Source: Eubacterium sp. (GTDB lineage: Bacteria > Bacillota > Clostridia > Lachnospirales > Lachnospiraceae). Taken from it: DNA of 64,000 nt. The stretch covers positions 7,632 through 71,631 of the forward strand of contig JAFRWY010000020.1 of NCBI GenBank assembly GCA_017437905.1. The letters run 5' to 3'. The notes under the pieces were generated by a model. It had not been told where the DNA came from, did not search any database, and was given only the letters and a program-made list of their open reading frames with translations. Both the position numbers and the translations under genes were made by a program. This document shows, piece by piece, positions 30,381-64,000 of this stretch (positions within the stretch are counted from its first letter, which is position 1; every line of letters starts with the position of its first letter).

Positions 30381-30409
30381 TTGTATTTTCTCCGCCAAAG
30401 TGGTAGAAT
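30381..30409 (+). promoter_or_regulatory. Sigma-A-type promoter of the CapD-like gene
   Basis: TTGTAT (30381-86), a 17-nt spacer, then TAGAAT (30404-09). The tracked ATG 30400 falls inside it. Confidence 0.5.
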
Positions 30410-30444
30410 GTCGCGAGTGCGCGTTCGGAGGCATGATTCGGAAA

Positions 30445-32313
30445 ATGAGTAAAAGAAAGATCATTACAAAGATCATACTGATCCTGTACGATACGGCGGC
30501 AGTGGTGGCGGCCAGTTTTCTGGCGCTGCTGATGCGTTTCGATCTGCAGTTCTCAAAGATTCCCGATGAATATTTCTCGGTGATGACGAAGAGTCTGTGG
30601 GTCGGAGTGGTGACTGCGGTCGTTTCCTTCACGTTGTTCCGGCTTTATTCCAGCCTCTGGAGTTATGCCGGTGCGACGGAGTTCAAGAATATCACCCTTG
30701 CCTGCGGACTGGCCAGCCTCCTTAACATGGGTCTGATCATGGCCCTGAATTCGGAGGTGACGGTACCGCTTCCGCGAAGCTATTATATCCTTTACTTTGT
30801 ATTCCTGCTGATCCTTGTTATCATCAGCCGGTTCTTCTACCGGACGTTCTTCTCCGTGAGACGTCAGGTGGTGGAGACCAAGACCCGCACACCGAAGAGC
30901 CGGGTGATGGTGATCGGTGCCGGAAGCGGCGGAAATGACCTGATCCGCGAGATCAAGAACAGCAAATATCTGGACATGAAGGTAGTGGGCGTGATCGATG
31001 ATGACGCCGGCAAGGTAGGCAATTATATCCACGGCGTAAAGGTCGTGGGCAAGAGAGAGGATATCCCCCGGATGGCCGAGAAGCTGCGGGTGGACGAGAT
31101 CATTCTTGCCATGCCTTCCGCCAAGGCCAGCCAGATCCATGATATCCTGGAGATCTGCAAGGAGACCGGATGTGAACTGAAGAAGATGCCCGGTATCTAT
31201 CAGCTGGTGACCGGTGAGGTCAGCGTGACGGATCTCCGTGAGGTGGATGTGAACGACCTTCTGGGAAGGGAACCCATCCAGGTAAATATCGATTCCATCA
31301 TGGGGTATGTATCCGGCAAGACCGTGCTTGTCACGGGCGGCGGCGGATCCATCGGAAGCGAGCTCTGCCGTCAGATCGCAGGGCATAATCCGAAACGTCT
31401 GGTGATCGTGGATATCTACGAGAATACTACCTATGATGTGCAGAACGAACTGAAGAAGACCTATCCGGAGCTGGATCTGGTGGTGCTGATCGCATCCGTC
31501 CGGAACACCAAGCGTATGGACCAGATCTTCGAGATCTACCGTCCGGACATCGTCTATCATGCGGCAGCCCATAAGCATGTGCCGCTGATGGAGGACAGCC
31601 CGAACGAAGCCATCAAGAACAATGTGCTGGGAACCTGGAAGATCGTTCAGGCAGCAGATCGCTGGAAGGTAAAGCGGTTTGTCATGATCTCCACGGACAA
31701 GGCAGTGAATCCAACGAACATCATGGGAGCCTCCAAGCGTCTCTGTGAGATGATCGTCCAGACCTACGATAAGCATTCCGAGACCTCCTTCGTGGCGGTC
31801 CGGTTCGGAAATGTACTCGGCTCCAACGGAAGCGTGATCCCGCTCTTCAAGAAGCAGATCGCGGAGGGTGGTCCGGTCACCGTGACCCACCCGGATATCA
31901 TCCGGTATTTCATGACCATTCCGGAAGCGGTATCCCTGGTGCTTCAGGCCGGGGCCTACGCCAAGGGCGGAGAGATCTTCGTGCTGGATATGGGTGAACC
32001 GGTGAAGATCCTGGATCTTGCCAGAAACCTGATCCTTCTGTCCGGCCATAAGCCCGATGAGGATATCAAGATCGTCTTTACGGGCCTTCGTCCGGGTGAG
32101 AAGCTTTACGAGGAGATGCTCATGAAGGAAGAGGGCATGCAGGATACCGAGAACCAGCTGATCCATATCGGTAAGCCCATCGAGATGGATGAGGAGAAGT
32201 TCATGGAAGACCTGAAGGAACTCGGTGAGTATGTGATCACCGAACCCTATGACATCCGTGATTTTGTACAGCGCATGGTGCCCACGTACCATCCGCAGAA
32301 AACGGAAGAATAA
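30445..32313 (+). CDS. Membrane-anchored nucleotide-sugar 4,6-dehydratase/epimerase of the CapD/PglF/EpsC/WbpM family
   Basis: Four N-terminal TM helices, a first Rossmann fold (MVIGAGSGGNDLI), then an SDR domain with VLVTGGGGSIGSEL and MISTDKAVNPTNIMGASKRLCE. The ATG at 30445 is 13 nt after GGAGG. Confidence 0.88.
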   Translation: MSKRKIITKIILILYDTAAVVAASFLALLMRFDLQFSKIPDEYFSVMTKSLWVGVVTAVVSFTLFRLYSSLWSYAGATEFKNITLACGLASLLNMGLIMALNSEVTVPLPRSYYILYFVFLLILVIISRFFYRTFFSVRRQVVETKTRTPKSRVMVIGAGSGGNDLIREIKNSKYLDMKVVGVIDDDAGKVGNYIHGVKVVGKREDIPRMAEKLRVDEIILAMPSAKASQIHDILEICKETGCELKKMPGIYQLVTGEVSVTDLREVDVNDLLGREPIQVNIDSIMGYVSGKTVLVTGGGGSIGSELCRQIAGHNPKRLVIVDIYENTTYDVQNELKKTYPELDLVVLIASVRNTKRMDQIFEIYRPDIVYHAAAHKHVPLMEDSPNEAIKNNVLGTWKIVQAADRWKVKRFVMISTDKAVNPTNIMGASKRLCEMIVQTYDKHSETSFVAVRFGNVLGSNGSVIPLFKKQIAEGGPVTVTHPDIIRYFMTIPEAVSLVLQAGAYAKGGEIFVLDMGEPVKILDLARNLILLSGHKPDEDIKIVFTGLRPGEKLYEEMLMKEEGMQDTENQLIHIGKPIEMDEEKFMEDLKELGEYVITEPYDIRDFVQRMVPTYHPQKTEE

Positions 32314-32369: not shown

Positions 32370-32428
32370 GGGGAAAGCCGGGGATCCGGCAGCGTTCATT
32401 TTATCATAGTGCATTTTTCTCCTTCTTA

Positions 32429-32437
32429 TGGTATAAT
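32429..32437 (+). promoter_or_regulatory. Extended -10 promoter element for module A operon
   Basis: TGgTATAAT at 32429-37. There is no good -35. Confidence 0.4.
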
Positions 32438-32474
32438 CCGATTAAGTATGCATAAAAACAAGGAAGGGACGAAC

Positions 32475-34961
32475 ATGAAGATACCTTTTTCACCTCCGGA
32501 TATCCGCGAGAACGACATTGCGGAGGTCTCCGAAGCCCTGCGTTCCGGCTGGATCACCACCGGACCCCGCACGAAAGAATTCGAACGAAAGATTGCCGAA
32601 TATGTCCATACACCCAAGGCTGCCTGCCTTACTTCCGCCACCTCCTGTCTGGAAATGGCGCTCCGTATCCTGGGTATCGGCCCCGGGGACGAAGTGATCA
32701 CTTCGGTCTATACATTTACGGCCAGCGCAAGCCCGATCCACCATGTGGGTGCGAAGATCGTGCTGGTGGATACGAAACCCGGTTCCTATGAGATGGATTA
32801 TGACCAGATGGCCGAGAAGATCACGGAGAAGACGAAGGCCATCATCCCCGTGGATCTGGCGGGTGTGGTCTGTGATTATGAAACCATCTTCCGGATCATT
32901 GAAGAGAAGAAGAGCCTGTTCAGGCCCAACGGACGCTATCAGGAAGCCATCGGACGGATCGCCGTGGTGGCGGATGCGGCCCATTCGCTGGGAGCAAAGA
33001 GGGACGGAAAAATGTGCGGCGAGATCGCCGACTTTACGGCCTTCTCCTTCCATGCGGTAAAGAATCTTACAACGGCAGAGGGCGGTGCTCTTGTATGGCG
33101 CACCATCCCCGGCTGTTCCGATGAAGAGGTCTATAAGAAGCTGATGCTCCTCACCCTGCACGGCCAGAGCAAGGACGCCCTGGAGAAGTCGCAGCTGGGA
33201 GGCTGGGAGTATGATATCCTGATGCCTGCCTACAAATGCAACATGACGGACATGATGGCAGCTGCAGGTCTTACCCAGCTGGCCAGATATGAGGATACCC
33301 TGAAGCGAAGACAGCAGATCGTGGACCGCTACAACGAAGCCTTCTCGGACTTCCCCATCGAGGTGATCCAGTCACCGGAGGTTGCAAAGGAGTCCAGCAA
33401 GCATCTGTACATGCTCCGGATCCGGGGCATCGATGAGGAGAAACGGAATGACATCATTTCCAGGATGACTAAGTTCGGTGTGGCAACCAATGTGCACTAT
33501 AAGCCGCTGGCCATGTACACCGCATATCGTGCCATGGGCTTTGAAATCAAGGATTTCCCGAATGCCTACAGGCAGTATGAAAATGAACTGACACTTCCGC
33601 TGAACACCTGCATGACGGACACGGAGCAGGAATATGTGATCAAATGCTTCGGTGAGGTTCTCGGACAGACCCCGAAGCCGAAGGCAAAGCGGGAACTTCG
33701 TCCTTTCGAGAAGAAGGTATGGCTGTCTTCCCCCACCATGCACGGTCCGGAAATGACCTACGTTCAGCAGGCCTTTGCGACCAACTGGATGTCCACCGTC
33801 GGAGAGAACATCGAAGAGGTGGAACGCCTTACGGCGAAGAAGGTAGGACGGAAGTACTGTGTCGGTCTTTCCGCCGGAACGGCAGCGCTGCATCTGGCAC
33901 TGAAGCTGGCTGCGGAGCAGCTGTACGGCCAGCCGGATCCCATCAGGGGATGTCTTGCGGGGAAGAAGGTCTTCTGCAGCGACATGACATTTGATGCCAC
34001 CGTGAATCCGGTTGCCTATGAGGGCGGCGAGGCTATCTTTATCGATTCGGAGTATGAAACCTGGAATATGGATCCGGTGGCTCTGGAGAAGGCGTTCGAG
34101 ATGTATCCGGAAGTCCGGATCGTGATGCTGGCCCATCTGTACGGGACGCCGGCCAAGATGGATGAGATCCGCGAGGTCTGCAGACGGCACGACGCACTGA
34201 TCGTTGAGGATGCGGCGGAGTCCTTTGGCGCCACCTATCGCGGGATCCAGACCGGAAACTTCGGACAACCCTCCGGTGTGCTCTCGGCCAACGGAAATAA
34301 GATCATCACCGGTTCCTGCGGCGGCATGCTGCTGACGGATGATGAGGAGATGGCGAACAAAGTCCGGAAATGGTCCACCCAGAGCCGTGAGGACGCCCCC
34401 TGGTACCAGCATGAAGAGCTGGGCTATAATTACCGGATGAGCAATGTGATCGCAGGTGTGATCCGCGGACAGCTGCCCTATCTGGAGGAGCATATCGCCC
34501 AGAAGAAGGCGGTTTATGAACGTTATAAGAATGGACTCAGCGATCTGCCGGTGGATATGAATCCGTATCTGGAATATACGGAGCCGAACTTCTGGCTGTC
34601 CTGCTGTACGATCCGTCCCGAGGCCATGTGCCGTCAGGTACGGGGCGAGCGTACCGTACTTTTCCAGAGCGAGCCGGGAAAAACCTGTCCTACGGAAATC
34701 CTTGAGAAACTGGCGGAGTTCAATGCAGAGGGACGTCCCATCTGGAAACCGATGCATATGCAGCCCATTTACCAGACCCATCCGTATATCACTGCGGAGG
34801 GAAGCGGCCGCGCCAGAAGTAATGCTTATATCGACGAAGGAAAGGTCACGGATGTGGGCGCGGATGTATTTGAACGGGGACTTTGTCTGCCCAGTGACAA
34901 CAAGATGACACCCGAGGAGCAGGATGTGATCATCGAGCTGATCCACCGCTGTTTTGAGTAG
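32475..34961 (+). CDS. Tandem fusion of two DegT/DnrJ/EryC1/StrS-type PLP sugar aminotransferases (second half EpsN-like)
   Basis: Half 1 (aa 1 to about 395) has a FSPPDI start, DEVITSVYTF and Schiff-base context FSFHAVKNLTTAEGG. Half 2 (about aa 415-828) has SPTMHGPE, DAAESFGA, SANGNKIITGSCGGML, RPIWKPMHMQPIY and GLCLPSDNKMTPEEQ, closely like B. subtilis EpsN. ATG 32475 has AAGGAAGGGA upstream. Confidence 0.85.
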   Translation: MKIPFSPPDIRENDIAEVSEALRSGWITTGPRTKEFERKIAEYVHTPKAACLTSATSCLEMALRILGIGPGDEVITSVYTFTASASPIHHVGAKIVLVDTKPGSYEMDYDQMAEKITEKTKAIIPVDLAGVVCDYETIFRIIEEKKSLFRPNGRYQEAIGRIAVVADAAHSLGAKRDGKMCGEIADFTAFSFHAVKNLTTAEGGALVWRTIPGCSDEEVYKKLMLLTLHGQSKDALEKSQLGGWEYDILMPAYKCNMTDMMAAAGLTQLARYEDTLKRRQQIVDRYNEAFSDFPIEVIQSPEVAKESSKHLYMLRIRGIDEEKRNDIISRMTKFGVATNVHYKPLAMYTAYRAMGFEIKDFPNAYRQYENELTLPLNTCMTDTEQEYVIKCFGEVLGQTPKPKAKRELRPFEKKVWLSSPTMHGPEMTYVQQAFATNWMSTVGENIEEVERLTAKKVGRKYCVGLSAGTAALHLALKLAAEQLYGQPDPIRGCLAGKKVFCSDMTFDATVNPVAYEGGEAIFIDSEYETWNMDPVALEKAFEMYPEVRIVMLAHLYGTPAKMDEIREVCRRHDALIVEDAAESFGATYRGIQTGNFGQPSGVLSANGNKIITGSCGGMLLTDDEEMANKVRKWSTQSREDAPWYQHEELGYNYRMSNVIAGVIRGQLPYLEEHIAQKKAVYERYKNGLSDLPVDMNPYLEYTEPNFWLSCCTIRPEAMCRQVRGERTVLFQSEPGKTCPTEILEKLAEFNAEGRPIWKPMHMQPIYQTHPYITAEGSGRARSNAYIDEGKVTDVGADVFERGLCLPSDNKMTPEEQDVIIELIHRCFE

Positions 34962-35056: not shown

Positions 35057-35791
35057 ATGAAAAAAAAGAAAACGGGAGTCCTGCTGCTGGGAATCGCTGC
35101 GGCGGTTGCGGCAGGAGCCTATATACTTAAGAAAACCACGATCCATACGGACGTGAAGGTACACCGTCCGAAGGGTTTCTATGAGGCGGTCATAAAACGT
35201 CCCATGGATTTCTGCCTGGCGCTTTTTGCACTGATTCTTCTTTCACCGGTGCTTCTGGTGCTGGCTGTCCTGATACGGACAAAACTGGGATCCCCCATCT
35301 TCTTCCGTCAGGAACGCCCGGGGAAGGACGGAAAAGTCTTCCTGCTGTATAAGTTTCGTACCATGACGGACGCGAAGGATGCGGAAGGGAATCTCCTCCC
35401 CGATGAAGAACGGCTTACTTCCTTCGGCAGGATGCTCCGTTCCACCAGCCTGGATGAACTGCCGGAACTCTGGAATATCCTGAAGGGGGATATGTCCATC
35501 GTAGGTCCGCGCCCTCTGTTGGTACGGTATCTGCCCAGATATAACGAGCATCAGGCCAGACGCCATGAGGTCCGCCCGGGCTTTACCGGTTTGGCGCAGG
35601 TGCATGGCCGCAATGCCATCAGCTGGGAGGAAAAGTTTGACTGGGATGTGAAATATGTGGATGATATCACATTTGCGGGGGATGTGAAGATCCTTCTGGA
35701 TACGGTACGGATCGTCCTGAAGAGAGAGGGCATCAGCTCCGAAACCTCCGCAACCATGGAAGAGTTTTACGGAACAGAGGCAGAAGAATAA
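35057..35791 (+). CDS. Small (PglC/EpsL-type) undecaprenyl-phosphate sugar phosphotransferase
   Basis: One N-terminal re-entrant helix, then the Bac_transf motifs RPGKDGKVFLLYKFRTM and DELPELWNILKGDMSIVGPRP. Confidence 0.9.
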   Translation: MKKKKTGVLLLGIAAAVAAGAYILKKTTIHTDVKVHRPKGFYEAVIKRPMDFCLALFALILLSPVLLVLAVLIRTKLGSPIFFRQERPGKDGKVFLLYKFRTMTDAKDAEGNLLPDEERLTSFGRMLRSTSLDELPELWNILKGDMSIVGPRPLLVRYLPRYNEHQARRHEVRPGFTGLAQVHGRNAISWEEKFDWDVKYVDDITFAGDVKILLDTVRIVLKREGISSETSATMEEFYGTEAEE

Positions 35792-35807: not shown

Positions 35808-36632
35808 ATGAAGAAAGAAGTGAGTGAGGTTCTGATGAACCTTCTGATCAGACTGGATGAGGTATGCCGCCGGCATCACCTCCGTTATTATCTGGCCTAT
35901 GGCACCTGCATCGGCGCCGTCCGCCATAAGGGCTTTATCCCCTGGGATCATGACATTGATGTGCTGATGCCCATCCGGGATGCGGTGGAACTGACGAAAT
36001 ATCAGGATGAGTTCGGACCGGACCTCTTTGTGCAGTCCCGGAAGACGGATCCGAATTATATCTCCATCGCCTATAAACTCCGTGATTCCAGCACGGCTTA
36101 TGTCTGGGACGAATATAAGCATATGGATTTTAACCAGGGTATCTCCCTGGACATCTATCCCTTCTACAATGCACCGAAGACGAAGCCGGGGCTTCTGCTG
36201 AATATATGGAGATCCCATATCTATAAGGTACTGGTTGCCGGGTATGTCCCCGAGAACCACGGGAAGGCGGCGAAACTGATGTCGAAGTTCTTCCTGACCC
36301 TGTTCCGGGGGAAGAGCCGCGGAAAAATGATCCGCCGCATGGAGTATAAGCTCCGTAAGGTGCCGAAAGGGAAGGAAATCCTGGATTACTACGGCCTGGA
36401 TATCACCCTCTGCAGCGCCATCACCTATCCGAGAGAGTGGTTCGGAAAGCCGAAACTCCTGGAATTCGAGGGGAGAAAGTTCTTCGGTCCCACGGAACCG
36501 GAGAAGTATCTGACGAAGCGATACGGCGATTTCATGACGCTGCCGCCGGTGGAGAAGCAGGTGGATCCGAACCAGGATGCAGACGTGGTGATCGATACGG
36601 AGAAAAGCTACAGGGAGTATCTGGAGCTTTAG
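35808..36632 (+). CDS. LicD-family phosphotransferase (phosphocholine / phospho-alditol transferase family)
   Basis: YLAYGTCIGAVRHKGFIPWDHDIDVLMP with the conserved DxD, about 270 aa. Confidence 0.85.
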   Translation: MKKEVSEVLMNLLIRLDEVCRRHHLRYYLAYGTCIGAVRHKGFIPWDHDIDVLMPIRDAVELTKYQDEFGPDLFVQSRKTDPNYISIAYKLRDSSTAYVWDEYKHMDFNQGISLDIYPFYNAPKTKPGLLLNIWRSHIYKVLVAGYVPENHGKAAKLMSKFFLTLFRGKSRGKMIRRMEYKLRKVPKGKEILDYYGLDITLCSAITYPREWFGKPKLLEFEGRKFFGPTEPEKYLTKRYGDFMTLPPVEKQVDPNQDADVVIDTEKSYREYLEL

Positions 36633-36756: not shown

Positions 36757-37911
36757 ATGGAACGATTAGATGCGGTGTATCTTGTTACGACACCATTTCA
36801 GATCATGTCAGCCATCAGTCTGGCTGTAAACCGTAAGGAGCGGGCTGACCTGTATATCGATGTACAGTTCGCCGGTGTGGAGGAACTTGCAGAGCGGATC
36901 CGTGCGAGACAGATCTTTGACCGGGTTCATATTCTGGACAAGGTGAGGGCTATCGATGAGATCCGTTCCGCCGGGAATACGGCGAAGCGGTACCGGAAGA
37001 TGCTTTACTGGTACCGGCATGTGGATGAGGCGGCGGCGGAGATCCTGCTTCCGGACAGGGAGTACCGGATCCTGTATGCAACCCATTATATCATCCCGGC
37101 TTCCCTGCTCATGCTTTATATCTCAAAGCATGACCTTAGGACAAAGGCATATTTCTTTGATGACGGGGAATCCAGTTATCATCTGGAGAAGTTTTATAAC
37201 AGCAGCCGGGGAGACCGGATGGCCAAGAAAATGGTGCTGAAGACGAAAAAGGACCGGAAGGCGAAGCGGCTGTACGTGTATTCTCCGGAGGTCTTCCGGA
37301 AGACGATGGCACAGTGTCCGATCCCGGTGTATCAGCTGCCCCGGTTCAGCGAGAATAAAACCGTACAGGAGCATCTGTCCGCGATCTTTGATGTGACCCC
37401 GGAGAAGGGGATCCGTGAATCCATGGTGATCCTGGATGCCAGAAAAGGGGATATCCTTTCTCCCGAGGATTGGAAGCGCCTGGAGGAACTCTACGAACGG
37501 ATGGCGGAGGAACTGGGACCGGAGAATGTGATCATCAAGCGGCATCCGAGAGATGAGAAGAACGAGAATCCGAAGATCACGGAATATGAACATCAGACCA
37601 TGCCCTTTGAACTGATCTGTCTGGCGTCTTCCATGAATAAGAAAACACTGGTGGCACTGCACTCTACGGCGACCTATAATCCGAAGCTTCTGTTCGATCA
37701 GGAGCCCAGGATTCTGCTCCTGCATCATCTCTTCCACAGGAAGGGATGGGACGATGCGGAGAGTGATCAGTTCTACGGACTGATCCGGGATACCTACCGG
37801 GATCCCGGTCGTGTGGTGATACCGGAGACCGAAGAAGAACTGTTCCGTGTTCTCGCTGAGATCAGGAAAGAACAGGAGACACCGGACCCTGCTGCAGAAG
37901 GAGAGAGATAA
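36757..37911 (+). CDS. Uncharacterised GT-B-like transferase carrying sialyltransferase-type D-D-G and H-P motifs
   Basis: Soluble 384-aa protein. FFDDGESSY encodes DDG at nt 37159-37167 and IIKRHPRDE encodes HP at nt 37543-37548, 128 residues apart. I recognise no other family. Confidence 0.4.
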   Translation: MERLDAVYLVTTPFQIMSAISLAVNRKERADLYIDVQFAGVEELAERIRARQIFDRVHILDKVRAIDEIRSAGNTAKRYRKMLYWYRHVDEAAAEILLPDREYRILYATHYIIPASLLMLYISKHDLRTKAYFFDDGESSYHLEKFYNSSRGDRMAKKMVLKTKKDRKAKRLYVYSPEVFRKTMAQCPIPVYQLPRFSENKTVQEHLSAIFDVTPEKGIRESMVILDARKGDILSPEDWKRLEELYERMAEELGPENVIIKRHPRDEKNENPKITEYEHQTMPFELICLASSMNKKTLVALHSTATYNPKLLFDQEPRILLLHHLFHRKGWDDAESDQFYGLIRDTYRDPGRVVIPETEEELFRVLAEIRKEQETPDPAAEGER

Positions 37912-37912
37912 A

Positions 37913-39088
37913 GTGGAAGCTACTTCGAAAACCACGGGATATCTGGATCTTTACCGGCTGGGACCGTCGTCTGCGGTTGTGTTTTATTTCCTTACGATCC
38001 TGCTTACGGCGCTTTATCCGGGTTCGGCCACCAGTATGCTGTATTATCTGGCGATTGCTTACGGGGCTGTGGTATACTTCTTCATGAAGCGTTCCGTTGG
38101 GATGCATTTCCTGTTGATCCTCGCCTTTGGAGCCGGTGTTCTGTCTACACTGAATACCGTGCTGATCGGGAACCAGACGGTGGTAAGGACCATGATCCTG
38201 GTGCTGTCTTTCTTTGTGGCAGCCCTGATGCTGGACGAGCACGTGGATGAACGGGCATACCTGGTGGCGGTCTATGTTGAGGGCGCTGTGGTCCTGCTGA
38301 AAACGGTTCTCCACGGGAGCTCCGCAGCGATCTATGAGGGGATATCCAACAATTATGTATCGGTCCACCTGCTGGCACCTGCGGTTCTTTACTACGGACT
38401 CCTGGATGCCAGAGGAAAGAAGATACCGCTGATCCCTGCAGTGGTGATCTGGATGCTCTGCTTCCTGTCCGGAGGACGGGGTGGGCTTTTGTCCGGAACC
38501 ATCCTGCTGGGAGGTGTGATCCTCCGGCTGTATCTGGGAGATGAGCGGACCAGAAGAGAGCGTGTCCAGCTGGGCATCCTTCTGGCGGCGGTGCTGATCC
38601 CCGCGTTGTTCGTCCTGGTGCAGGCGGTGCTGAACAGCGGCTGGAGTTTCTATGTGGTACAGCGCTTCCTGGACAAGGGAATGGACGGAGGCGGCCGGAT
38701 CGGCGGATGGATCGAATATATCGAATCGCTGATGGGATCCTTAAAATTCTTCCTGCTGGGTGTGGATCTGGACACGCAGGTGTGGATCCAGAAATACAGC
38801 GGGAATCTGCATAATTCCTTCCTGTTCGTACATGCCTATCTGGGAATCATCGGCTTTGCCGTTCTGATCGCCCTGATCATTCGGGCAACGGTACGGGCGG
38901 TGCAGTATAAGAAGGGAATCTACCTTTGCTGTATCATAACCTTCTGTTTCCGCGGTATGACGGATCATGTGTTCGGAGGAAACCGGTTTTCGGCGGTTAT
39001 GATCGCACTGCTGCTGATCACGGAGGTGATCCGTGAACGGCCGAAGGAAAAACAGTTCTATATGATGTTGAGAGGAGTCAGGAAATGA
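37913..39088 (+). CDS. Wzy / O-antigen-ligase-family polytopic membrane protein (polymerase or ligase)
   Basis: About 10 TM helices and an extracytoplasmic loop followed by NLHNSFLFVHAYLGIIGFAVLIALI (Wzy_C-like). GTG 37913 is 7 nt after AAGGAGAG. The tracked ATG 37847 overlaps the upstream gene. Confidence 0.65.
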   Translation: MEATSKTTGYLDLYRLGPSSAVVFYFLTILLTALYPGSATSMLYYLAIAYGAVVYFFMKRSVGMHFLLILAFGAGVLSTLNTVLIGNQTVVRTMILVLSFFVAALMLDEHVDERAYLVAVYVEGAVVLLKTVLHGSSAAIYEGISNNYVSVHLLAPAVLYYGLLDARGKKIPLIPAVVIWMLCFLSGGRGGLLSGTILLGGVILRLYLGDERTRRERVQLGILLAAVLIPALFVLVQAVLNSGWSFYVVQRFLDKGMDGGGRIGGWIEYIESLMGSLKFFLLGVDLDTQVWIQKYSGNLHNSFLFVHAYLGIIGFAVLIALIIRATVRAVQYKKGIYLCCIITFCFRGMTDHVFGGNRFSAVMIALLLITEVIRERPKEKQFYMMLRGVRK

Positions 39089-56462: not shown

Positions 56463-56501
56463 AACCGTCCTGTTTCGGGGACGAGGTGACTGAGGGAAAC
56501 T

Positions 56502-59465
56502 ATGCGTAAATTCGTGAAATGGTCAATCCGGCTGATTCTTCTCGGAGCATTTGTCATGCATTGCTCCGGGGAGGCGTATGCCGATACGCCGGATACGTAT
56601 CCGGAAGTGGCGGAGTCGGTCCTGTCCGGTGAGAAGGAATATCAGGGCCTGATTTTACAAATGAATTTCGGAACGGATGATATTGTGACCGGCCCGGCGG
56701 ATGATGCCGCGGAGGATACTACAGGCGGACCGGCGGATGACACCACGGACGAAATGGCAGGCGGTCCCGCGGGTTTTGCCGGGGATGACACGGCAGGCGG
56801 TCCCGCGGACGGTATTACAGGCGGCCCCGCGGACGACATCACGGCTGACACAACAGGCGGACCGGCAGATGATACCATGGCCGGTTCTTCTGATACACTG
56901 ACAAATGACCGGACAGAAGATCTTTCGAAGGATCCCGCAGACGATCAGACCGATCATCTGGCGGCTGCATCAGCAGACCATACGACGGACGAGATGGCGG
57001 ATGATCCCGAGGATGACCTGAAGGATGATCCCGAAGGCGATCTTTCGGATGATTCCGAACCGGAAGCCACCATCGGAAAACTGGGGACTTCGGTATTTGA
57101 ATCCGGAAACCGGATCTGGTTTTACAATGTGGCCGGCGGTCTGACCAACGCGGAATTTATCATAGTGGAATCAGACGGTCACTGGGGGATCATCGATGCG
57201 GGTCACCGGTATTCGCCGGAACCATTGGTGGATTCGGACGGGACGGAATATGAGGTCCCATTTTATTATGAGGACGGAACCCTGGCGGCCTTTTCCGTAC
57301 AGGCGGAAGGCAGAAACGGAAGGGATGCGGCACTTTACATGATCGAGACACTGGGTGTGTCTCATTTGGATTTTATTATCGGAACGCATGGGCATTCCGA
57401 TCACAGCGGCGGAATTCCGGACGTGGCGGGGCTCCTGGTAGAGGATGAGGATGGCATTCATCCCTTTGTGGATGAACAGACGGTCTATATTCATAAGAAA
57501 TATCAGCATGTAGGTCCGCTGAATGACGATTTGGGAGAAGAGAAGAACGAGCAGTCCTGGCACAATCAGGCCTTTGTTTATCAGGCAGAGAAGACCGTTG
57601 CGGATCAGGGTGGTCAGGTAGTGGATATCAGTCACGGACTGATCACCGGAAATGTCATGCGCGAAGCCGAGCAGGAGGAAATGGACTACAGTGAGATCCT
57701 GGCAGGGATCGAAGCCGGGGCGGGAATCTCCAACGTGGTATATGACCAGCGGGAACTGAATGATTATTTTGATGATTACATCGAATTTCAGTTTGGGGAT
57801 TTCAATATCCGGCTTTACAATCTGTATTCGATCTATAAACCCTCGGATGAGAACACAAACTGTATTGTGACGGTGATCTCCGATGGGAAAAATGCATTTT
57901 ATTCCGGCGCGGATCTGGATGCTACGTATCTGGTACAGCAGCGTGTGGCAAATGCGGTCTATGCGGACTACGGGCATATCGATATGGTGAAGACCCATCA
58001 TCACGGTGTTGTGGTTGCAAATACCAAGGAGTTTCTGGACCTCTTCCAGCCGTCGGTATCCATCAACGCTTCCTGGAGAAGTATATCCGACATCATGGCG
58101 AACAGCTATGCAGCGGGTATTCACTATTCGAAGAAGCATTATGGAACCGTATATTATGAGGTGGGTTCCTCTGACAAGGGACTTGTGGTTGAGTTCGGGG
58201 AAGAAGGACTGGAGTTAAAGCAGCTTTTCAACGAAGGCGCGGAGGCTTCCTTCGGTTCGCCGGAGAACTGCATCAATCAGTCACCCGTTCAGGAAGGATG
58301 GGCGGAGTGGATCACCGGAAAATACGCCGGAACCCTGAATGATTTCTTATATTTTATTGAAAATGAGCCGGTGACCGGATGGATGGAACTGGAGGAAGGA
58401 ACCTTCTTCTTCGATGAAGACGGTTTTATGTTCCGGGGCTGGCTGGAGGATCAGGGGGAGACCTACTTCTTCAGGAATGACGGAACCATGTTCACCGGCT
58501 GGAAGAAGGTGGAGGACGGATATTTTTATTTCAATCCGGAGACCGGTGCTTCCGTTCACGGCTGGGTGGCGGATGATACCGGAACCTATTTTCTTCTGCT
58601 GACACAGCAGCTGTTGACCGGCTTCCATATGATCGACGGGGAAGGATACTATTTCCGTGAGAACGGAGCCATGAAAACCGGCTGGGTACAGACGGAGGAC
58701 GGCTGGCGGTTTTTTGATGAATTTGGACGGATGATGGACGGACTGACCGGCATCGATGGGAAGACGTATTACCTTGAGAACGGTGTACTCACCACCGGCT
58801 GGGCCGAGGTGGAAGGTTCCACCTACTGGATCGGATCTGACGGTGCGGTAGCCACCGGCTGGCAGCGGATCGGCAGCGGAATCTATTATTTCGGAGAAGA
58901 CGGATGCATGGTTACCGGGTGGTTCCGCGTTGACGGAACCTGGTTCCACAGTACGGAGTCCGGCAGACGGGAAGACGGCTGGTTTACGGACGAAAGCGGA
59001 ACCTATTATCTGGATGGTGAATACGGCCTGCAGAAGGGCTGGCTGTCTCTCGGGGAGAATACCTATTATCTCGGGACCTCCGGGAAGATGGTCACCGGAT
59101 GGAAGTATCTGGCCGGCGACTGGCATTTCTTCAATGAGAAGGGTGTTATGGTAAAGGGCTGGTTCCGGACAGGCGGAGCATGGTACTTTGCCGACCGGGG
59201 AGGCTGCATGAGGACTGGCTGGCAGAAACTGGGAACGCGGTGGTATTTCTTCCGCTCCGATGGACGCATGAAGACCGGATGGATCCGGTCGGAGGGGCAA
59301 TGGTTGTATCTGAATGAAACGGACGGTTTCGTGACCACCGGCTGGAAACAGATCGGAGAGGACTGGTACTATTTTGAAAAGAGCGGCTTCATGGTGACAG
59401 GAAGCCAGACCATTAACGGAAAGACCTGGGAGTTCCGGGCGGACGGAACCCTGATTCAGGAATAA
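56502..59465 (+). CDS. Secreted metallo-beta-lactamase-fold hydrolase with C-terminal CW_binding_1 repeats (Pce/CbpE-like architecture)
   Basis: Signal peptide and a GGPADD-type acidic repeat linker. The MBL core has FIIVESDGHWGIIDAG, IIGTHGHSDHSGG and MVKTHHHG. About 400 aa of repeats follow (GWMELEEGTFFFDEDGFMFRGW ...). Confidence 0.8.
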   Translation: MRKFVKWSIRLILLGAFVMHCSGEAYADTPDTYPEVAESVLSGEKEYQGLILQMNFGTDDIVTGPADDAAEDTTGGPADDTTDEMAGGPAGFAGDDTAGGPADGITGGPADDITADTTGGPADDTMAGSSDTLTNDRTEDLSKDPADDQTDHLAAASADHTTDEMADDPEDDLKDDPEGDLSDDSEPEATIGKLGTSVFESGNRIWFYNVAGGLTNAEFIIVESDGHWGIIDAGHRYSPEPLVDSDGTEYEVPFYYEDGTLAAFSVQAEGRNGRDAALYMIETLGVSHLDFIIGTHGHSDHSGGIPDVAGLLVEDEDGIHPFVDEQTVYIHKKYQHVGPLNDDLGEEKNEQSWHNQAFVYQAEKTVADQGGQVVDISHGLITGNVMREAEQEEMDYSEILAGIEAGAGISNVVYDQRELNDYFDDYIEFQFGDFNIRLYNLYSIYKPSDENTNCIVTVISDGKNAFYSGADLDATYLVQQRVANAVYADYGHIDMVKTHHHGVVVANTKEFLDLFQPSVSINASWRSISDIMANSYAAGIHYSKKHYGTVYYEVGSSDKGLVVEFGEEGLELKQLFNEGAEASFGSPENCINQSPVQEGWAEWITGKYAGTLNDFLYFIENEPVTGWMELEEGTFFFDEDGFMFRGWLEDQGETYFFRNDGTMFTGWKKVEDGYFYFNPETGASVHGWVADDTGTYFLLLTQQLLTGFHMIDGEGYYFRENGAMKTGWVQTEDGWRFFDEFGRMMDGLTGIDGKTYYLENGVLTTGWAEVEGSTYWIGSDGAVATGWQRIGSGIYYFGEDGCMVTGWFRVDGTWFHSTESGRREDGWFTDESGTYYLDGEYGLQKGWLSLGENTYYLGTSGKMVTGWKYLAGDWHFFNEKGVMVKGWFRTGGAWYFADRGGCMRTGWQKLGTRWYFFRSDGRMKTGWIRSEGQWLYLNETDGFVTTGWKQIGEDWYYFEKSGFMVTGSQTINGKTWEFRADGTLIQE
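56688..56885 (+). repeat. In-frame GGPADD-type acidic repeat tract
   Basis: TGPADDAAEDTTGGPADDTTDEMAGGPAGFAGDDTAGGPADGITGGPADDITADTTGGPADDTMAG, followed by further Asp-rich sequence to about 57070. Confidence 0.9.
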
Positions 59466-59484: not shown

Positions 59485-60612
59485 ATGGAATTTCGTGATC
59501 TGAGAAGACAATATGAGATACTGAAGGAAGGAATCGATCAGCGGATCGAAGATGTAATTACATCGAGCAGGTTTATATCCGGCCCGGAGGTAAAGGAACT
59601 GGAGCAGGCGCTGGCAGACTATACGGGAACCGGGTACTGTGTCGCCTGTGCAAACGGGACAGACGCACTGACGCTGGCATGTATGGTCTGGCAGGTGGGC
59701 CCAGGGGATGCGGTGTTCGTTCCGGATTTCACATTCTTCTCCAGCGGAGAATCTCCGGCTGCCCTGGGTGCCCATGTGGTATTTGTGGATGTGGAGCCGG
59801 ATACCTTCAATATGGATCCGGATCGTCTGGAACAGGCGGTTCTGGAAGTGGAACGGGAAGGAAAGTACCGCCCGAAGGTGGTTGTGGCAGTGGATCTCTT
59901 CGGACAGCCGGCCGATATGGACCGGATCCGTCCGATCTGTGACAGGTACGGGATGTATCTGCTGGAGGACGGGGCCCAGGGCTTTGGCGGTGAGATCCGC
60001 GGGAAAAAGGCCTGCAGTTTCGGGGACATCTCCACCACCAGCTTCTTCCCTGCAAAGCCGCTGGGCTGCTACGGAGACGGCGGAGCCATATTTACCGATC
60101 GTGCAGAGTGGGCGGACCTGCTCCGGAGTTACTGCGTGCACGGAAAGAGTCCTGTCAGCAAGTATGACAATCTCCGCCTGGGCATGAACAGCCGGCTGGA
60201 TACGTTACAGGCAGCGATCCTGCTTCCGAAGCTGGAGGCATTTCGTTCCGGTGAGGTCGAAGCCGTGAACCTGGTGGCAGACTGGTACCGTGAAGCATTT
60301 GCCGGATCGGAGCTTATCCTGCCCACCGTAAAGGAAGGGTACCTCAGCAGTTGGGCACAGTATACGGTTCAGCTCCCGGAGGGTACGGACCGTGATGCTG
60401 TACAGCAGAGAATGAAAGAGGCGGGAATTCCCACCATGGTATATTATATGAAGCCCATGCATCTGCAGGGGGCATTTGCGGGAACGGGAAGTGAGAAGGC
60501 AGACTGTCCGGTGACGGAGCGGCTCTGCAAATGTGTTCTCAGTCTTCCCATGCACCCGTATATGACAAAGGAAGAAGCGGAAACGGTAGCAAAGGAGCTT
60601 TTGAAGCAGTGA
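59485..60612 (+). CDS. DegT-family PLP aminotransferase (WbpE/WlbC-like)
   Basis: The N-terminus FRDLRRQYEILKEGIDQRIEDVITSSRFISGPEVKELEQALADYTGTGYCVACANGTDAL is collinear with P. aeruginosa WbpE. The Lys context is TTSFFPAKPLGCYGDGGA. Confidence 0.85.
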   Translation: MEFRDLRRQYEILKEGIDQRIEDVITSSRFISGPEVKELEQALADYTGTGYCVACANGTDALTLACMVWQVGPGDAVFVPDFTFFSSGESPAALGAHVVFVDVEPDTFNMDPDRLEQAVLEVEREGKYRPKVVVAVDLFGQPADMDRIRPICDRYGMYLLEDGAQGFGGEIRGKKACSFGDISTTSFFPAKPLGCYGDGGAIFTDRAEWADLLRSYCVHGKSPVSKYDNLRLGMNSRLDTLQAAILLPKLEAFRSGEVEAVNLVADWYREAFAGSELILPTVKEGYLSSWAQYTVQLPEGTDRDAVQQRMKEAGIPTMVYYMKPMHLQGAFAGTGSEKADCPVTERLCKCVLSLPMHPYMTKEEAETVAKELLKQ

Positions 60613-61997
60613 GACAACAGGCTCGTCTCAGAATGGTGATGGCGTCGCTGCTGATCCTGGCATCCGCCATACCGAATCTGGGAAATGAATTGAATATTTT
60701 AGGCTCGTTCCTGAATTTCTACCGGCTGATGGTGGTCTTTCTGGCCATGATCACGCTGATCGTTTTTCGGGGAGAGCTTCGGATCACGGAGCGGCGCAGC
60801 TTTCTTCTGTGGATGGGATTCCTCAGCTGCTGGCTTTTCTACGGGGTCCTTCTTTTGCTGCTGTCTCCCTATGCGGAGGCGGAGCGGGGAACCAGGGAGC
60901 TTTTCTCCATCCTCTGCGGTCTGCTCAGCTTCTATATTCTATCGAACCTGAAGCTTTCGGAACGGGAGATCGAGAGCGTCTTCCGGGTGATGTTCTGGGT
61001 TCTGGCGGCCATGCTGGTGCTCGGAGCCTGGGAGATCATTACCGGAAACCATCTTTCCTCTTCGATGTTCAATGATCCTGCGAATGAGGTGGCGTGGCGT
61101 GTGGATACCCATTCCGCTACGGGCTTCCTTTACAATGTCAATGATTATTCGGCCCTGATCACCCTGATGCTTCCTGTGGTGGTTGGAAGATACCGGATCG
61201 TATTCCGGAGAGGATATCTGGATCCCGGCTGGTTCCTGATCATCGCAACGGCGGTGATCAACCGTGTGAACGATGCCAATTTCTGCAACGCGGCGCTGGT
61301 GGTAGGTGTGTTTACCTATATTCTCCTGCATATGGGAGGAGACCGGCGGCGGAAAGGCTGGGTGCTGGTGGCAGCCACCGTGCTCCTGACGGGTCTTTTG
61401 GTAATGTATTTCCTGAATGACGGGGAAAGTGAAAATGTGGTCTCCCGGACCATGGATCTGGTCTCCAGAAGTGCCGAAGGAACCGGCTCCCTTCATTCCA
61501 GACTTCTGATCTACCGGGATGCGCTTTCCGCCGGCTGGTTGTCAGGCTTCCTCGGTATGGGTCCCGGCGGGTTCTCTCTTTATTATACAGAGAATCCTTC
61601 CGATTCGGGCTTTATCAACCCCCACAGTCTGCTGCTGGAGATCTTCTCCGAATACGGACTGATCATTGTGCTGCTGTTCATAGTCCTTCTTGTCCTGCTG
61701 TTCCGGAACATGCACCGGATCTTCCTTGTATCCAAGGATCCGACAAGGAGAGTGTGGGGACAGACGGGTATGATCTGGATCATAACATATCTGATCGTGT
61801 CCTTTGCTTCCAGCAATTATCTGCCGAACTCCTTCCACTGGACCCTTCTGGCGCTGATCTGCCTGATGAAGGAAACCATACGGGAGGAAGAACCGGAGAT
61901 TTTTGCCCGTGAATTTGAGAAGAAGGAGAGTTACGCAAATGAAGGTCTGTCATATAACCAGCGCGCATCCGCAGGAGGATATCCGGATATTCCATAA
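60609..61997 (+). CDS. Second Wzy / O-antigen-ligase-family polytopic membrane protein
   Basis: About 10-12 TM helices and NPHSLLLEIFSEYGLIIVLLFIVLL (Wzy_C-like). GTG 60609 (GTGA overlap with the upstream stop, AAGGAG 11 nt upstream) or ATG 60633 are both possible starts. The tracked ATG 60531 is unlikely. Confidence 0.65.
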   Translation: MRQQARLRMVMASLLILASAIPNLGNELNILGSFLNFYRLMVVFLAMITLIVFRGELRITERRSFLLWMGFLSCWLFYGVLLLLLSPYAEAERGTRELFSILCGLLSFYILSNLKLSEREIESVFRVMFWVLAAMLVLGAWEIITGNHLSSSMFNDPANEVAWRVDTHSATGFLYNVNDYSALITLMLPVVVGRYRIVFRRGYLDPGWFLIIATAVINRVNDANFCNAALVVGVFTYILLHMGGDRRRKGWVLVAATVLLTGLLVMYFLNDGESENVVSRTMDLVSRSAEGTGSLHSRLLIYRDALSAGWLSGFLGMGPGGFSLYYTENPSDSGFINPHSLLLEIFSEYGLIIVLLFIVLLVLLFRNMHRIFLVSKDPTRRVWGQTGMIWIITYLIVSFASSNYLPNSFHWTLLALICLMKETIREEEPEIFAREFEKKESYANEGLSYNQRASAGGYPDIP

Positions 61998-63000
61998 GGA
62001 ATGTGTGACCCTGGCAGAGGGCGGACACAGGACCTACCAGGTATCCTGTGGAACCTTATATAAGAAGAACGGTGTCCGCATGGCAGGGTTCGGGGATGCT
62101 GCCTCCGGCAGGCTGGGACGTATGCTTGGTACGGCGCGGAAAGCATACCGGATGGCCCTGAAGGTGGACGCGGAGGTGTATCATTTCCATGATCCCGAGC
62201 TTCTTCCCTACGGACTGAAGCTGAAGCGGAAGGGGAAGAAGGTGATCTTCGACAGCCATGAGGATGTTCCGGGACAGATCCTGGACAAGACATGGATCCC
62301 GGCACCGCTCAGGAAGATCATTTCCGGTTTGTACCGGAAATATGAAACCCATGTGGTAAAGCATCTGGACGCAGTGGTTGCGGCAACGCCCCATATCGCG
62401 GAGAAATTCGAGGGCCGGGCGAAGAAGGTGGTTGTTGTAAATAATTTCCCGAATCTGGATGATATCCGTTTCCAGAAGGCGCCATTTGCAGGAAGAGAAG
62501 CCCTGGTCTGCTATGCCGGCGGGATCGATGAAAACCGCGGCGAGAGCATTATGAAGCACGCCATGGAGGGGGTTCCCGGGGAACTGGTGATCGCGGGGGA
62601 TCATCCGGAAGAAAAGCAGGAAAATGTGACCTATGTGGGCCGTCTGGACCGGGACGGCGTCAATGATCTGTACGGTCGTTCCGTGGCAGGACTCTGCATC
62701 CTGAAACCCATTGAAAATTATTACTATTCCCAGCCGATCAAAATGTATGAATACATGGCGGCGGGCCTTCCCTTTATCTGCTCGGATTTTCCGGGCTGGA
62801 GGAAGGTGGCCGAGGAAAGCGGCGGCGGCATCCTGGTGGATCCCACGGACAATGACGGGATCCGCTCTGCGATCACGGGTCTTCTTACGGACCGGGAGAA
62901 GGCGGAACGTATGGGACGCAAGGGCCGCGACTATGTTGTTGCAAACTGTACATGGGAGAATGAGGCGAAGACACTGCTCCGCCTGTATGAGGAATTATGA
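61939..63000 (+). CDS. GT4-family glycosyltransferase
   Basis: MKVCHITSAHPQEDIRIFHKEC N-terminus and a GT-B C-terminal half with the YSQPIKMYEYMAAGLPFICSD (E-x7-E-like) region. AGGAGAG lies 9 nt upstream. Confidence 0.8.
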   Translation: MKVCHITSAHPQEDIRIFHKECVTLAEGGHRTYQVSCGTLYKKNGVRMAGFGDAASGRLGRMLGTARKAYRMALKVDAEVYHFHDPELLPYGLKLKRKGKKVIFDSHEDVPGQILDKTWIPAPLRKIISGLYRKYETHVVKHLDAVVAATPHIAEKFEGRAKKVVVVNNFPNLDDIRFQKAPFAGREALVCYAGGIDENRGESIMKHAMEGVPGELVIAGDHPEEKQENVTYVGRLDRDGVNDLYGRSVAGLCILKPIENYYYSQPIKMYEYMAAGLPFICSDFPGWRKVAEESGGGILVDPTDNDGIRSAITGLLTDREKAERMGRKGRDYVVANCTWENEAKTLLRLYEEL

Positions 63001-64000
63001 AAGTACTGATTGTATCCAGAGGAATTCCGACAAAACAAAATCCCCTTCTCGGAAGCTTTGAGTGGGATCAGGCCAGGGCGCTCTGCAAAGCGGGGCACCA
63101 GGTGACCTTCTTTGCACTGGATCTTCGTTCGATTCGAAGGAAGAGAAGCTTCGGTATCTTTCAGAGGGAGACCGACGGGATGCGGATATTTGTTCACTCG
63201 CTGCCGGTAGGAGCCATTCCGCCGGCGCTGTTTGTAAAGGCGGGTGAGAGAGCTCTGCTTTCTCTTTATAAAAGAGCATTTCGCGCCGGTGACCGTCCGG
63301 ATGTGGTCCATGCACATTTTACGGATATGGGCTGCATCGCCTCGGTATTAAAGCGGAAAAAATCTCTTCCGCTTGTGATCACGGAGCATTCCTCGATCAT
63401 GGGACGGGAGGAAGTACCGGAGAGTACCCTGCGGATGGCGAAGAAGGGATATGCCGCGGCAGATTGTCTGATCGCCGTCAGCGGTGAACTTTCGGCAAAG
63501 ATCCTGCAGCATACCGGCATGGAGAGCCGGGTGATCCAGAATATCATCGATCCGGAAGTTTTTCTTAAGTGTCCGAAACAGGAACATACGGGTTTCCGGT
63601 TTATCTCCGTGTCCAATCTGATCCCCAGGAAGCGGATCGGTCTTTTGATCGATGCCTTCGCACGGGTCCGGAGGAATGCACCGGAGGCATGTCTGGATAT
63701 TGTCGGAGACGGTGAAGAGCGGGCAATGCTGGAGGAGAAGGTAACGTCCTACGGGCTTACGGATGCGGTTTCCTTTGCGGGAGGCCTGCCCAGGCCGGAG
63801 GTCGCAGAGCATCTTGCGGCAGCGGATGCTTTCGTGCTTCCCTCGGAACTGGAGACATTCGGTGTGGTATATGCCGAAGCCATGATGGCCGGACTTCCGG
63901 TGATCGCGACTACCTGCGGAGGACCGCAGGATTTTGTAAAGGATTTTACAGGACTTCTGGGTGCGTATGATACGGAGGAGACCCTGGCGGAGGCCATGGA
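62997..64000 (+). CDS. GT4-family glycosyltransferase, 3' end beyond the window (absent from the ORF track because no stop is reached)
   Basis: My own translation from ATG 62997 (ATGA overlap with the upstream stop) is open to nt 64000. It reads MKVLIVSRGIPTKQNPLLGSFEWDQARAL...VVHAHFTD...LPSELETFGVVYAEAMMAGLPVIATTCGGPQDF, with the EX7E motif. Confidence 0.8.
   Translation, partial: MKVLIVSRGIPTKQNPLLGSFEWDQARALCKAGHQVTFFALDLRSIRRKRSFGIFQRETDGMRIFVHSLPVGAIPPALFVKAGERALLSLYKRAFRAGDRPDVVHAHFTDMGCIASVLKRKKSLPLVITEHSSIMGREEVPESTLRMAKKGYAAADCLIAVSGELSAKILQHTGMESRVIQNIIDPEVFLKCPKQEHTGFRFISVSNLIPRKRIGLLIDAFARVRRNAPEACLDIVGDGEERAMLEEKVTSYGLTDAVSFAGGLPRPEVAEHLAAADAFVLPSELETFGVVYAEAMMAGLPVIATTCGGPQDFVKDFTGLLGAYDTEETLAEAM

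Follow-up and report, generated by a model that had tools for sequence, protein, structure and literature searches.

Choline-binding-type repeat protein genes embedded in putative wall-glycopolymer operons of a rumen Lachnospiraceae bacterium

Introduction

Why should genes for five secreted repeat proteins lie inside a set of glycopolymer synthesis genes? The question is raised by a locus that runs from 30.4 kb to the edge of a 64-kb stretch of DNA (the window), which comes from a metagenome-assembled genome (MAG) of a rumen Lachnospiraceae bacterium, "Eubacterium sp.". The five proteins are built on CW_binding_1 repeats, which are among the commonest surface anchors of gut and rumen Lachnospiraceae and whose wall ligand is little known outside streptococci and a few clostridia. 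Here the locus offers a compact genetic hypothesis, in which the genes that make the ligand, the enzyme that trims it and the proteins that ride on it would be encoded together. This hypothesis is directly testable, because the locus also occurs in a cultured Hungate-type isolate, Lachnospiraceae bacterium AC2029.

With moderate confidence, we read the locus as operons for a Wzy-dependent wall glycopolymer that co-express proteins predicted to dock on the polymer and to trim it, the polymer itself being the putative ligand. The gene arrangement suggests, rather than proves, such a linked system of polymer and binders. As a whole, the region appears to be a vertically inherited cell-envelope locus of a narrow rumen Lachnospiraceae clade, organized as two probable + strand operons.

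Gene content and conservation of the locus

The 22 open reading frames (ORFs) in 30400-64000 all lie on the + strand. According to Pfam and NCBIfam, 17 of them serve glycopolymer synthesis and five encode secreted CW_binding_1 proteins. An initial annotation, made from the letters of the DNA and without database searches, had described the same two classes, with every gene from 30381 to the edge on the + strand and the repeat proteins inside the locus, and this description was borne out. The strand bias is not peculiar to the locus, because the genes upstream are nearly all on the + strand as well.

The arrangement is probably not a chance one, and the evidence for this is the gene order conserved in relatives, not enrichment within the window. 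To find relatives, we used the two polysaccharide co-polymerase (PCP)-like proteins of the locus, PCP1 and PCP2, which have 22 and 15 homologues, respectively, among 5.8 billion proteins (the PCP1 list misses at least one demonstrable orthologue). With so few homologues, both PCPs mark one clade. Neighborhoods of PCP homologues at 43-94% identity were read and annotated with the window proteins. Apart from that of the isolate AC2029, they come from metagenomes or MAGs of rumen or gut, under the labels Eubacterium sp. or Lachnospiraceae. A metagenome scan with a PCP2 profile gave seven loci, mostly short.

The window carries both small phosphoglycosyl transferases (PGT1 and PGT2), LicD, the GH5 and CAP repeat proteins, a very large headless repeat protein (BIG), the WbpD/E-like genes, the GH25 repeat protein and the Pce-like esterase, and it lacks NeuB and CMP-synthetase genes. 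RUG10588 (loci L009 and L012) has the same set, with two copies of BIG. The AC2029-like genome (L028 and L002), whose second module is also present in the isolate AC2029 (L013), has this set without PGT1, and again no NeuB/CMP-synthetase genes. RUI538/K5897 (L008 and L011) has PGT1, LicD, NeuB/CMP-synthetase, WbpD/E-like, GH25 and Pce-like genes in loci that do not cover the GH5/CAP and BIG positions. IKQ49 (L010 and L004) has NeuB/CMP-synthetase, GH5/CAP and GH25 genes and lacks PGT1, LicD, BIG, the WbpD/E-like genes and the Pce-like gene, absences that tblastn upheld. The second half of L006/L035 resembles that of IKQ49, and the second halves of L007 and L015 resemble the window.

Across these relatives, the repeat-protein genes keep their places. 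The GH5 and CAP genes always follow PCP1, in every locus covering that position, and in 12 of 12 lineages the GH25 gene stands directly after PCP2, the measured gaps being 14-45 nt long. BIG is present in the LicD- and Pce-positive loci that cover it. In all, 9-12 lineages keep the repeat-gene positions, although the identity of their PCP proteins has dropped to 43-76%. Among the same relatives, the genes for glycosyltransferases, Wzy proteins, flippases and nonulosonic-acid synthesis (NeuB) differ. The conserved order supports the view that the repeat proteins have long been encoded within the polymer operons. Within the window, the gaps around the GH25 and Pce-like genes measure 32, 39 and 19 nt, in line with the 20-40 nt first noted for the 53997-59465 region.

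LicD and a Pce-like esterase

Two genes point to the possible nature of the ligand. The first encodes a LicD-family phospho-group transferase (35808-36632, +; Pfam LicD E 3e-37), for which phosphocholine is the predicted group. Orthologues occur in three relatives at 80-86% identity. The second encodes a secreted esterase-like protein with a metallo-β-lactamase (MBL)-fold head (56502-59465, +), related to pneumococcal Pce/CbpE (PDB 1wra, 2bib and 12qj). The head lies under the Pfam threshold (E 9e-4) and carries the motif HGHSDH. In a phmmer search of the PDB, it matched 12qj, 1wra and 2bib at E 2e-18 to 3e-17, with other MBLs above 0.01, and a profile of five orthologous heads matched Pce/CbpE at E 3.5e-23 versus 3.5e-8 for the next match, ComEC. 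The HxHxDH, D.N.N, GDL and xHG motifs are kept in five of five orthologues, and eleven repeat motifs follow at the C-terminus. A single-sequence AlphaFold2 (AF2) model of the head was unusable (predicted local distance difference test score (pLDDT) 34.8), and the family placement rests on the profile search against the PDB. On these matches, the head belongs to the same family as the catalytic module of pneumococcal Pce/CbpE, as a specific homologue of it, and esterase activity is predicted.

The head has 47 relatives at E≤1e-30 among the 1.84 billion representative proteins of a library. Repeat motifs and signal peptides occur in about two thirds of these, so the combination of Pce-like head and repeats is recurrent but not abundant. 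A genome scan with the Pce-head profile returned four close loci and 12 distant ones, the latter comprising 11 stand-alone MBLs without repeat-protein context and one Collinsella locus.

We compared LicD and Pce-like occurrence in five genomes, setting aside L007 and L006/L035. Both genes are present in four (the window, RUG10588, AC2029-like and RUI538) and both are absent in IKQ49, a co-occurrence that is independent of PGT1 and NeuB. The phospho-group added by LicD, probably phosphocholine, would be both the substrate of the esterase and the docking ligand. This interpretation draws on the presence of LicD together with a Pce homologue and a LytC-like enzyme, on their co-variation, and on the choline teichoic acids of solventogenic clostridia. 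Our literature search on LicD with phosphocholine in Lachnospiraceae, and on AC2029, found nothing useful.

The Collinsella locus is of separate interest. On a contig of Collinsella sp. HGM04269 (Coriobacteriia; L021, 846-10270), a LicD gene lies beside genes for four CW_binding_1 proteins, one headed by YkuD, one by a metallo-β-lactamase domain and two by NlpC/P60. As Collinsella belongs to a different phylum, clustering of LicD with binders is not confined to the Lachnospiraceae clade.

The other repeat proteins

All five repeat proteins of the locus match the Choline_bind_1/2/3 families, have signal-peptide-like N-termini and carry PF01473 repeats in tandem. The heads initially read as GH5, CAP, none, GH25 and MBL were found again by Pfam, the last being placed with Pce/CbpE by profile.

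The GH25 protein (53997-56462, +; GH25 E 3e-30) is secreted and resembles LytC. It has 821 aa, with repeats at about 100-600 that match Choline_bind_1/2/3 and a C-terminal GH25 muramidase domain at residues 624-808, which spans the full model (positions 1-180 of 180). The sequence shows GIDIS and DTE motifs, and the domain order is that of LytC. We also considered a prophage endolysin; its length, its signal peptide, its fixed position after PCP2 and the absence of phage genes nearby rule this out.

The GH5 protein (40631-41977, +) is secreted and joins CW_binding repeats (Choline_bind_2) to an endoglucanase-like head (Cellulase E 4e-57). Against the PDB, this head is closest to β-1,4-endoglucanases, with E 3e-82 for 6gjf and 3e-71 for Bacillus Cel5A. 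The CAP protein (42060-43169, +) is a secreted CAP/YkwD-domain protein with four canonical 20-residue choline-binding-type repeats. BIG (43237-47190, +; probable start ATG 43255) has 1317 aa and matches Choline_bind families only. In the place of BIG, between the CAP and GT4 genes, IKQ49 (L004/L010) and L006/L035 encode an approximately 608-aa SpoIIE-domain protein and an Acyl_transf_3 protein.

Proposed mechanism

We propose that one or two wall polymers are synthesized by a Wzy-dependent route initiated on undecaprenyl phosphate. LicD would place a phospho-substituent, most probably phosphocholine, on the lipid-linked repeat unit, and the polymer would then be flipped, polymerized and attached to the wall. 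The repeat modules would dock the five proteins non-covalently on this polymer. Once there, the Pce-like esterase would trim the substituent and the LytC-like GH25 muramidase would cut peptidoglycan, with the GH5, CAP and headless proteins displayed on the surface. If this is true, the pneumococcal functions of LicD, Pce and LytC have counterparts in Clostridia that are organized as a single operon system, and polymer loci could predict surface-protein display in gut anaerobes, including that of fiber-degrading enzymes.

Alternative explanations

Several observations weigh against this interpretation. By Pfam, the DNA upstream of the locus holds two more CW_binding_1 genes (12707-14791 and 16693-17997), so that the window alone shows no significant enrichment (5 of 22 locus genes versus 2 of 20 outside genes, Fisher p=0.25). 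The co-variation of LicD and the Pce-like gene comes from five genomes and probably reflects one evolutionary event, and the Pce-like gene correlates equally with the WbpD/E-like genes and BIG. IKQ49 has no LicD, yet retains repeat proteins with GH5, CAP and GH25 heads, all of them with canonical repeats. Neither licA, licB nor licC was found among the scanned ORFs of the 64-kb window, and no LCP-family ligase gene lies within it. LicD has a generic, sub-threshold match in NCBIfam, and LicD-family enzymes transfer other phospho-groups as well. The GH5 protein may be a surface-displayed fiber enzyme and not a polymer remodeler. Finally, CW_binding_1 repeats in toxins and glucansucrases bind glycans rather than choline (PMC4929436).

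The alternative that best withstands the data is co-location only, in which the repeats dock elsewhere (on lipoteichoic acid, another polymer or peptidoglycan) and the arrangement has been inherited within a narrow clade. This scenario would fit the two repeat-protein genes upstream, of which one follows a c-di-GMP riboswitch, as well as the lack of significant enrichment, the three repeat proteins that remain without LicD, and the scattering of streptococcal choline-binding protein genes away from the lic loci (PMC2828477). The lineages compared are also not independent, since the PCP families, with 15 and 22 homologues, are confined to one small clade. Yet the repeat genes hold their positions while adjacent biosynthetic genes are swapped and PCP identity falls to 43%, they are separated from flanking biosynthetic genes by tight gaps of 14-45 nt (with an overlap in the AC2029-like locus), and the Pce-like gene is lost along with LicD. 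We regard co-location with docking elsewhere as unlikely.

A different possibility concerns what the repeats recognize. They might bind the glycan backbone, as in glucansucrases and toxin combined repetitive oligopeptides (CROPs), with LicD and the Pce-like enzyme only tuning a side decoration. The long, degenerate repeats of BIG and the GH25 protein speak for this, whereas those of the CAP and Pce-like proteins, short 20-residue GW..WYY..G.M units of the pneumococcal type, speak against it. The locus repeats score no lower against TcdA/TcdB CROPs and glucansucrases than against pneumococcal proteins. An NCBIfam glucan-binding repeat family also matches them, and the retention of the GH5, CAP and GH25 proteins in the LicD-less locus is in keeping with backbone binding. 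However, a Pce homologue that itself bears pneumococcal-type repeats implies a phosphocholine-type target, and we consider backbone recognition rather improbable.

The remaining proposal, that the product is a released exopolysaccharide or capsule, that the GH5 and GH25 enzymes serve fiber digestion and cell separation, and that the repeats are the general anchor of the clade, can appeal to the β-1,4-endoglucanase-like GH5 head, to the absence of an LCP ligase gene within the window and to the rumen Lachnospiraceae species Butyrivibrio proteoclasticus B316, in which PF01473 repeats hold plant-polysaccharide-degrading enzymes on the cell surface (PMC2914790), but it leaves the Pce-like esterase and LicD without a role in fiber digestion, does not account for a GH25 gene that invariably follows a PCP gene, and is very improbable.

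Our preferred reading thus remains a wall polymer that acts as ligand for the proteins encoded with it. The linkage first proposed for the locus is partly supported: the fixed positions, the Pce-like and LytC-like homologues and the co-variation of the Pce-like gene with LicD favor it, and the three repeat proteins kept without LicD count against it. Co-variation of repeat genes with locus type, an expectation attached to that proposal, was found for the Pce-like gene and BIG, but the GH5, CAP and GH25 genes are present in both types. As for the suggestion that the proteins bind or remodel the polymer, homology favors it for the Pce-like and LytC-like proteins, while the GH5 head resembles common β-1,4-endoglucanases. 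The polymer of this locus is a putative ligand of the repeats.

We also entertain, as a doubtful extension, a switchable surface cassette, in which polymer chemistry and matching docked proteins would be inherited and exchanged together and the GH25 muramidase would be a dedicated part of polymer export and wall insertion instead of a general autolysin. Two locus types were seen: type A with LicD, WbpD/E-like, Pce-like and BIG genes, and type B, to which the MAG GCA_017541035.1 belongs, which lacks all of these and has the SpoIIE-like and acyltransferase genes instead.

Promoters, terminator and operon structure

The locus probably comprises two operons, one from the promoter at 30381 to the terminator ending at 47238 and the other from a promoter at about 47260 to a point past the window; co-transcription within each is predicted. 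The first promoter (30381-30409, +) has a TTGTAT element, a 17-nt spacer and an extended -10, TGgTAGAAT. A consensus promoter scan did not list it. When the spacer between cvpA/DUF5711 and capD was aligned from four diverged lineages, TTG and GTGnTAGAAT stood out as conserved islands amid diverged sequence, which upholds the promoter first placed at this position. The intrinsic terminator of the first operon (47207-47238, +) has an 11-bp stem with 8 GC pairs and a T-run. As initially noted, it is the only strong intergenic terminator. It is kept with compensatory changes in RUG10588 and is absent in the AC2029-like locus. The second operon has an extended -10, TGcTATAAT (47260-47268, +), identical in L009. 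BIG and the GT4 gene that follows it share 8 nt in the AC2029-like locus, the whole of which may therefore be a single operon.

Biosynthetic genes

The first operon opens with a membrane-anchored CapD/PglF-type UDP-GlcNAc 4,6-dehydratase (30400-32313, +; Polysacc_synt_2 E 2e-123), with a probable start at ATG 30445, four N-terminal transmembrane (TM) segments and a PseB-like nearest NCBIfam family. It is followed by a fused double aminotransferase (32409-34961, +) that matches DegT twice. Its PseC-type and LegC-type halves both exceed the NCBIfam cut-offs, with 458.5 bits (cut-off 423.5) for PseC and 442.8 (cut-off 420) for the LegC family. This fusion, a single 850-aa protein, is kept in all relatives. 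Next come PGT1 (35057-35791, +; 244 aa, Bac_transf E 1e-62) and LicD. A glycosyltransferase resembling GT52 enzymes, polysialyltransferases and nonulosonic-acid transferases follows (36757-37911, +; GT52 E 4e-4, polyST E 0.012). It has DDG and HP motifs, and the L028 orthologue also matches GT52. A NeuB gene and a gene for a 533-aa CTP_transf_3 protein occur in some relatives only and are not in the window, though the GT52-like transferase is retained there.

The last two synthesis genes of the first operon encode Wzy1 (37847-39088, +), a polytopic membrane protein with about ten TM segments that resembles Wzy and O-antigen ligases (Wzy_C E 0.19, over the whole model; an orthologue in a relative is also a weak Wzy_C match), and PCP1 (39085-40479, +). 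PCP1 is 23% identical to PCP2 and shares its topology, with TM segments at residues 11-39 and 273-299 and a C-terminal cytoplasmic domain. Judging from the CapD-type dehydratase and the PseC/LegC fusion, the first operon may yield a 4-amino-4,6-dideoxy-HexNAc or a nonulosonic-acid-type sugar.

The second operon begins with a GT4 glycosyltransferase (47370-48668, +; Pfam). WbpA-like UDP-HexNAc 6-dehydrogenase, WbpB-like MocA oxidoreductase and WbpD-like hexapeptide acetyltransferase genes follow (48737-51781, + by Pfam), with UDP-ManNAc/GlcNAc dehydrogenases and UDP-GlcNAc 3-dehydrogenase as the nearest NCBIfam families. PGT2 (51762-52454, +; 230 aa, Bac_transf E 9e-57) is present in all relatives. 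The Wzc-like PCP2 (52483-53964, +) is 100% identical to the NCBI MAG protein IJM25_02220. Its AF2 model, built from a 27-sequence alignment, has a pLDDT of 84.9, and the best 28 Foldseek matches are all full-length Wzc (E 1e-9 to 1e-5). Both PCPs show the usual pair of TM segments of the family, the first of them N-terminal, and no Walker A motif was seen in the short C-terminal domain of PCP2.

Beyond the GH25 and Pce-like genes lie a WbpE-like DegT aminotransferase (59485-60612, +; Pfam, NCBIfam), a Wzy_C-family polymerase or ligase that is weakly TuaE-like (60531-61997, +; Wzy_C E 6e-12, TuaE E 4e-9) and two GT4 glycosyltransferases (61903-64000, +; Pfam), the second extending past the window edge. 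In L015 (RUG12082, 7601-8718), the WbpE-like gene is split into ORFs of 218 and 154 aa, by a frameshift or a MAG assembly error. All four WbpA/B/D/E-like enzyme classes are present and their nearest NCBIfam families fit, each below the equivalog cut-off. The second operon may thus make a sugar of the 2,3-diacetamido-uronic-acid type, and the set suggests a teichuronic-acid-like anionic polymer.

The inventory first drawn up for the synthesis genes has survived closer analysis. It listed CapD, three DegT domains (two in the fusion and one in 59485-60612), two PglC-size transferases, LicD and a WbpA/B/D/E-like set, all recovered by Pfam or NCBIfam; at least four glycosyltransferases, which we count as one GT52-like and three GT4; two Wzy-like proteins, one clear and one weak; and two PCP-like proteins, now supported by AF2 and Foldseek for PCP2 and by identity and topology for PCP1. 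Its division into two biosynthetic modules holds for the gene sets but not for their full autonomy, given relatives without PGT1 and a single flippase at the end of the AC2029 locus.

Together, the two PGTs, the Wzy_C proteins and the Wzc-like PCP supply parts of a Wzy pathway. No flippase was found in the part of the locus inside the window. Exact-sequence look-ups of the GH25 and DegT proteins of the window gave no match, and AC2029 (L013; scaffold JNLK01000001.1, around 242-264 kb), the sole relative read to the locus end, serves as a proxy beyond the window edge. It has the same gene order, followed by a Polysacc_synt flippase directly past the gene where the window stops and then by the end of the locus, which accounts for the seeming absence of a flippase from the window.

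Chromosomal setting

The initial annotation had called the region an island. In the sense of horizontal transfer, this is ruled out by conserved flanks, normal composition and the absence of mobility genes in the window. GC content is about 0.53 over the whole window, 0.49-0.56 within the locus and 0.51-0.60 outside it, without a shift at the locus. No integrase or transposase was matched by Pfam among the scanned window ORFs. Flanks were read in three relatives: DUF5711 and cvpA flank L009, cvpA flanks L010, and leuA, an unknown gene and DUF5711 flank L028, so that DUF5711 with cvpA and/or leuA is common to all three. The locus is not mobile, because its chromosomal site (leuA–DUF5711–cvpA) is the same in these relatives.

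The upstream part of the window has features of its own. The gene at 12707-14791 (+), just after comEC, encodes a 694-aa protein with about 13 canonical choline-binding-type repeats and no recognizable head, likely docked on the wall. A c-di-GMP-I riboswitch (RF01051; 16624-16700, +; 51.7 bits, gathering score 35) directly precedes the CW_binding_1 gene at 16693-17997, which suggests c-di-GMP control of the surface display of that protein. About 6 kb upstream of the locus, an unusual 582-aa fusion (22903-24651, +) has a MatE/Polysacc_synt (MOP flippase-like) membrane domain and, at its C-terminus, a HATPase_c_2 domain of the anti-sigma-factor-kinase type. A T-box leader (RF00230; 24776-25032, +; 115 bits) lies upstream of leuA (25127-26947), and the minus-strand ORF 24763-25182 is spurious because it overlaps this leader. 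Inside the locus, Rfam gave no riboswitch or leader.

Comparison with known systems

The closest parallel is the choline teichoic acid system of S. pneumoniae and S. mitis, which likewise combines a LicD-family transferase with secreted PF01473-repeat proteins and has a Wzy-type, flippase-dependent route such as is predicted for the locus. Pneumococcal LytC, like the GH25 protein of the locus, has N-terminal repeats and a C-terminal GH25 muramidase, and pneumococcal Pce, like the MBL protein, is an MBL-fold esterase with C-terminal repeats. As Denapaite et al. 2012 reportedly proposed, CapD, a DegT protein and a small phosphoglycosyl transferase start pneumococcal teichoic acid with AATGal, and the corresponding set of the locus resembles this one. 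Unlike pneumococcus, the locus has a second, uronic-acid-type module, GH5 and CAP heads and Wzc-like PCPs, and the 64-kb window holds no licA/B/C or tarIJ, choline being predicted only. The Pce layout, with the catalytic module N-terminal and the repeats C-terminal, is described in PMC4929436. Streptococcal pce, lytC and further binder genes lie dispersed outside the lic and teichoic-acid operons (PMC2828477, Table 4), whereas those of the locus are embedded in putative polymer operons at conserved positions.

Within Clostridia, solventogenic species have been known since 1988 to combine choline teichoic acid with numerous choline-binding proteins (PMC3593318). C. saccharoperbutylacetonicum has 66 such proteins, and the PF01473 family of C. 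acetobutylicum NI-4/C. saccharoperbutylacetonicum and of C. beijerinckii (Csp) includes lytic enzymes (PMC3593318). That work consists of biochemistry and a gene count, while the host here is a rumen Lachnospiraceae of ~53% GC with different polymer genes. For B. proteoclasticus B316, which bears on the GH5 protein, no link to a polymer locus or to LicD/Pce is described and the ligand is assumed to be peptidoglycan (PMC2914790). In the literature that we searched, CW_binding_1 genes are nowhere described as embedded in a polymer operon, although our coverage is incomplete and this is not proof of absence. The initial view that the linkage is uncharacterized in Clostridia is therefore too broad for choline teichoic acid and its binders, and holds for the embedded genes.

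The C. difficile PS-II locus adjoins the cwp cluster of CWB2 proteins, and in Bacillus and Paenibacillus, genes for SLH proteins and for a csaB-pyruvylated secondary wall polysaccharide are adjacent. These systems follow the same organizing principle, polymer genes beside genes for non-covalent binders, with a module other than CW_binding_1; the ligand classes of CWB2 are tabulated in PMC5817068. There, the binder genes flank the polymer genes, while those of the locus are interleaved within the predicted operons, between PCP and aminotransferase genes. The functions and the placing of binder beside polymer are thus already known elsewhere, and what appears to be new is that CW_binding_1 genes are embedded in the polymer operons themselves.

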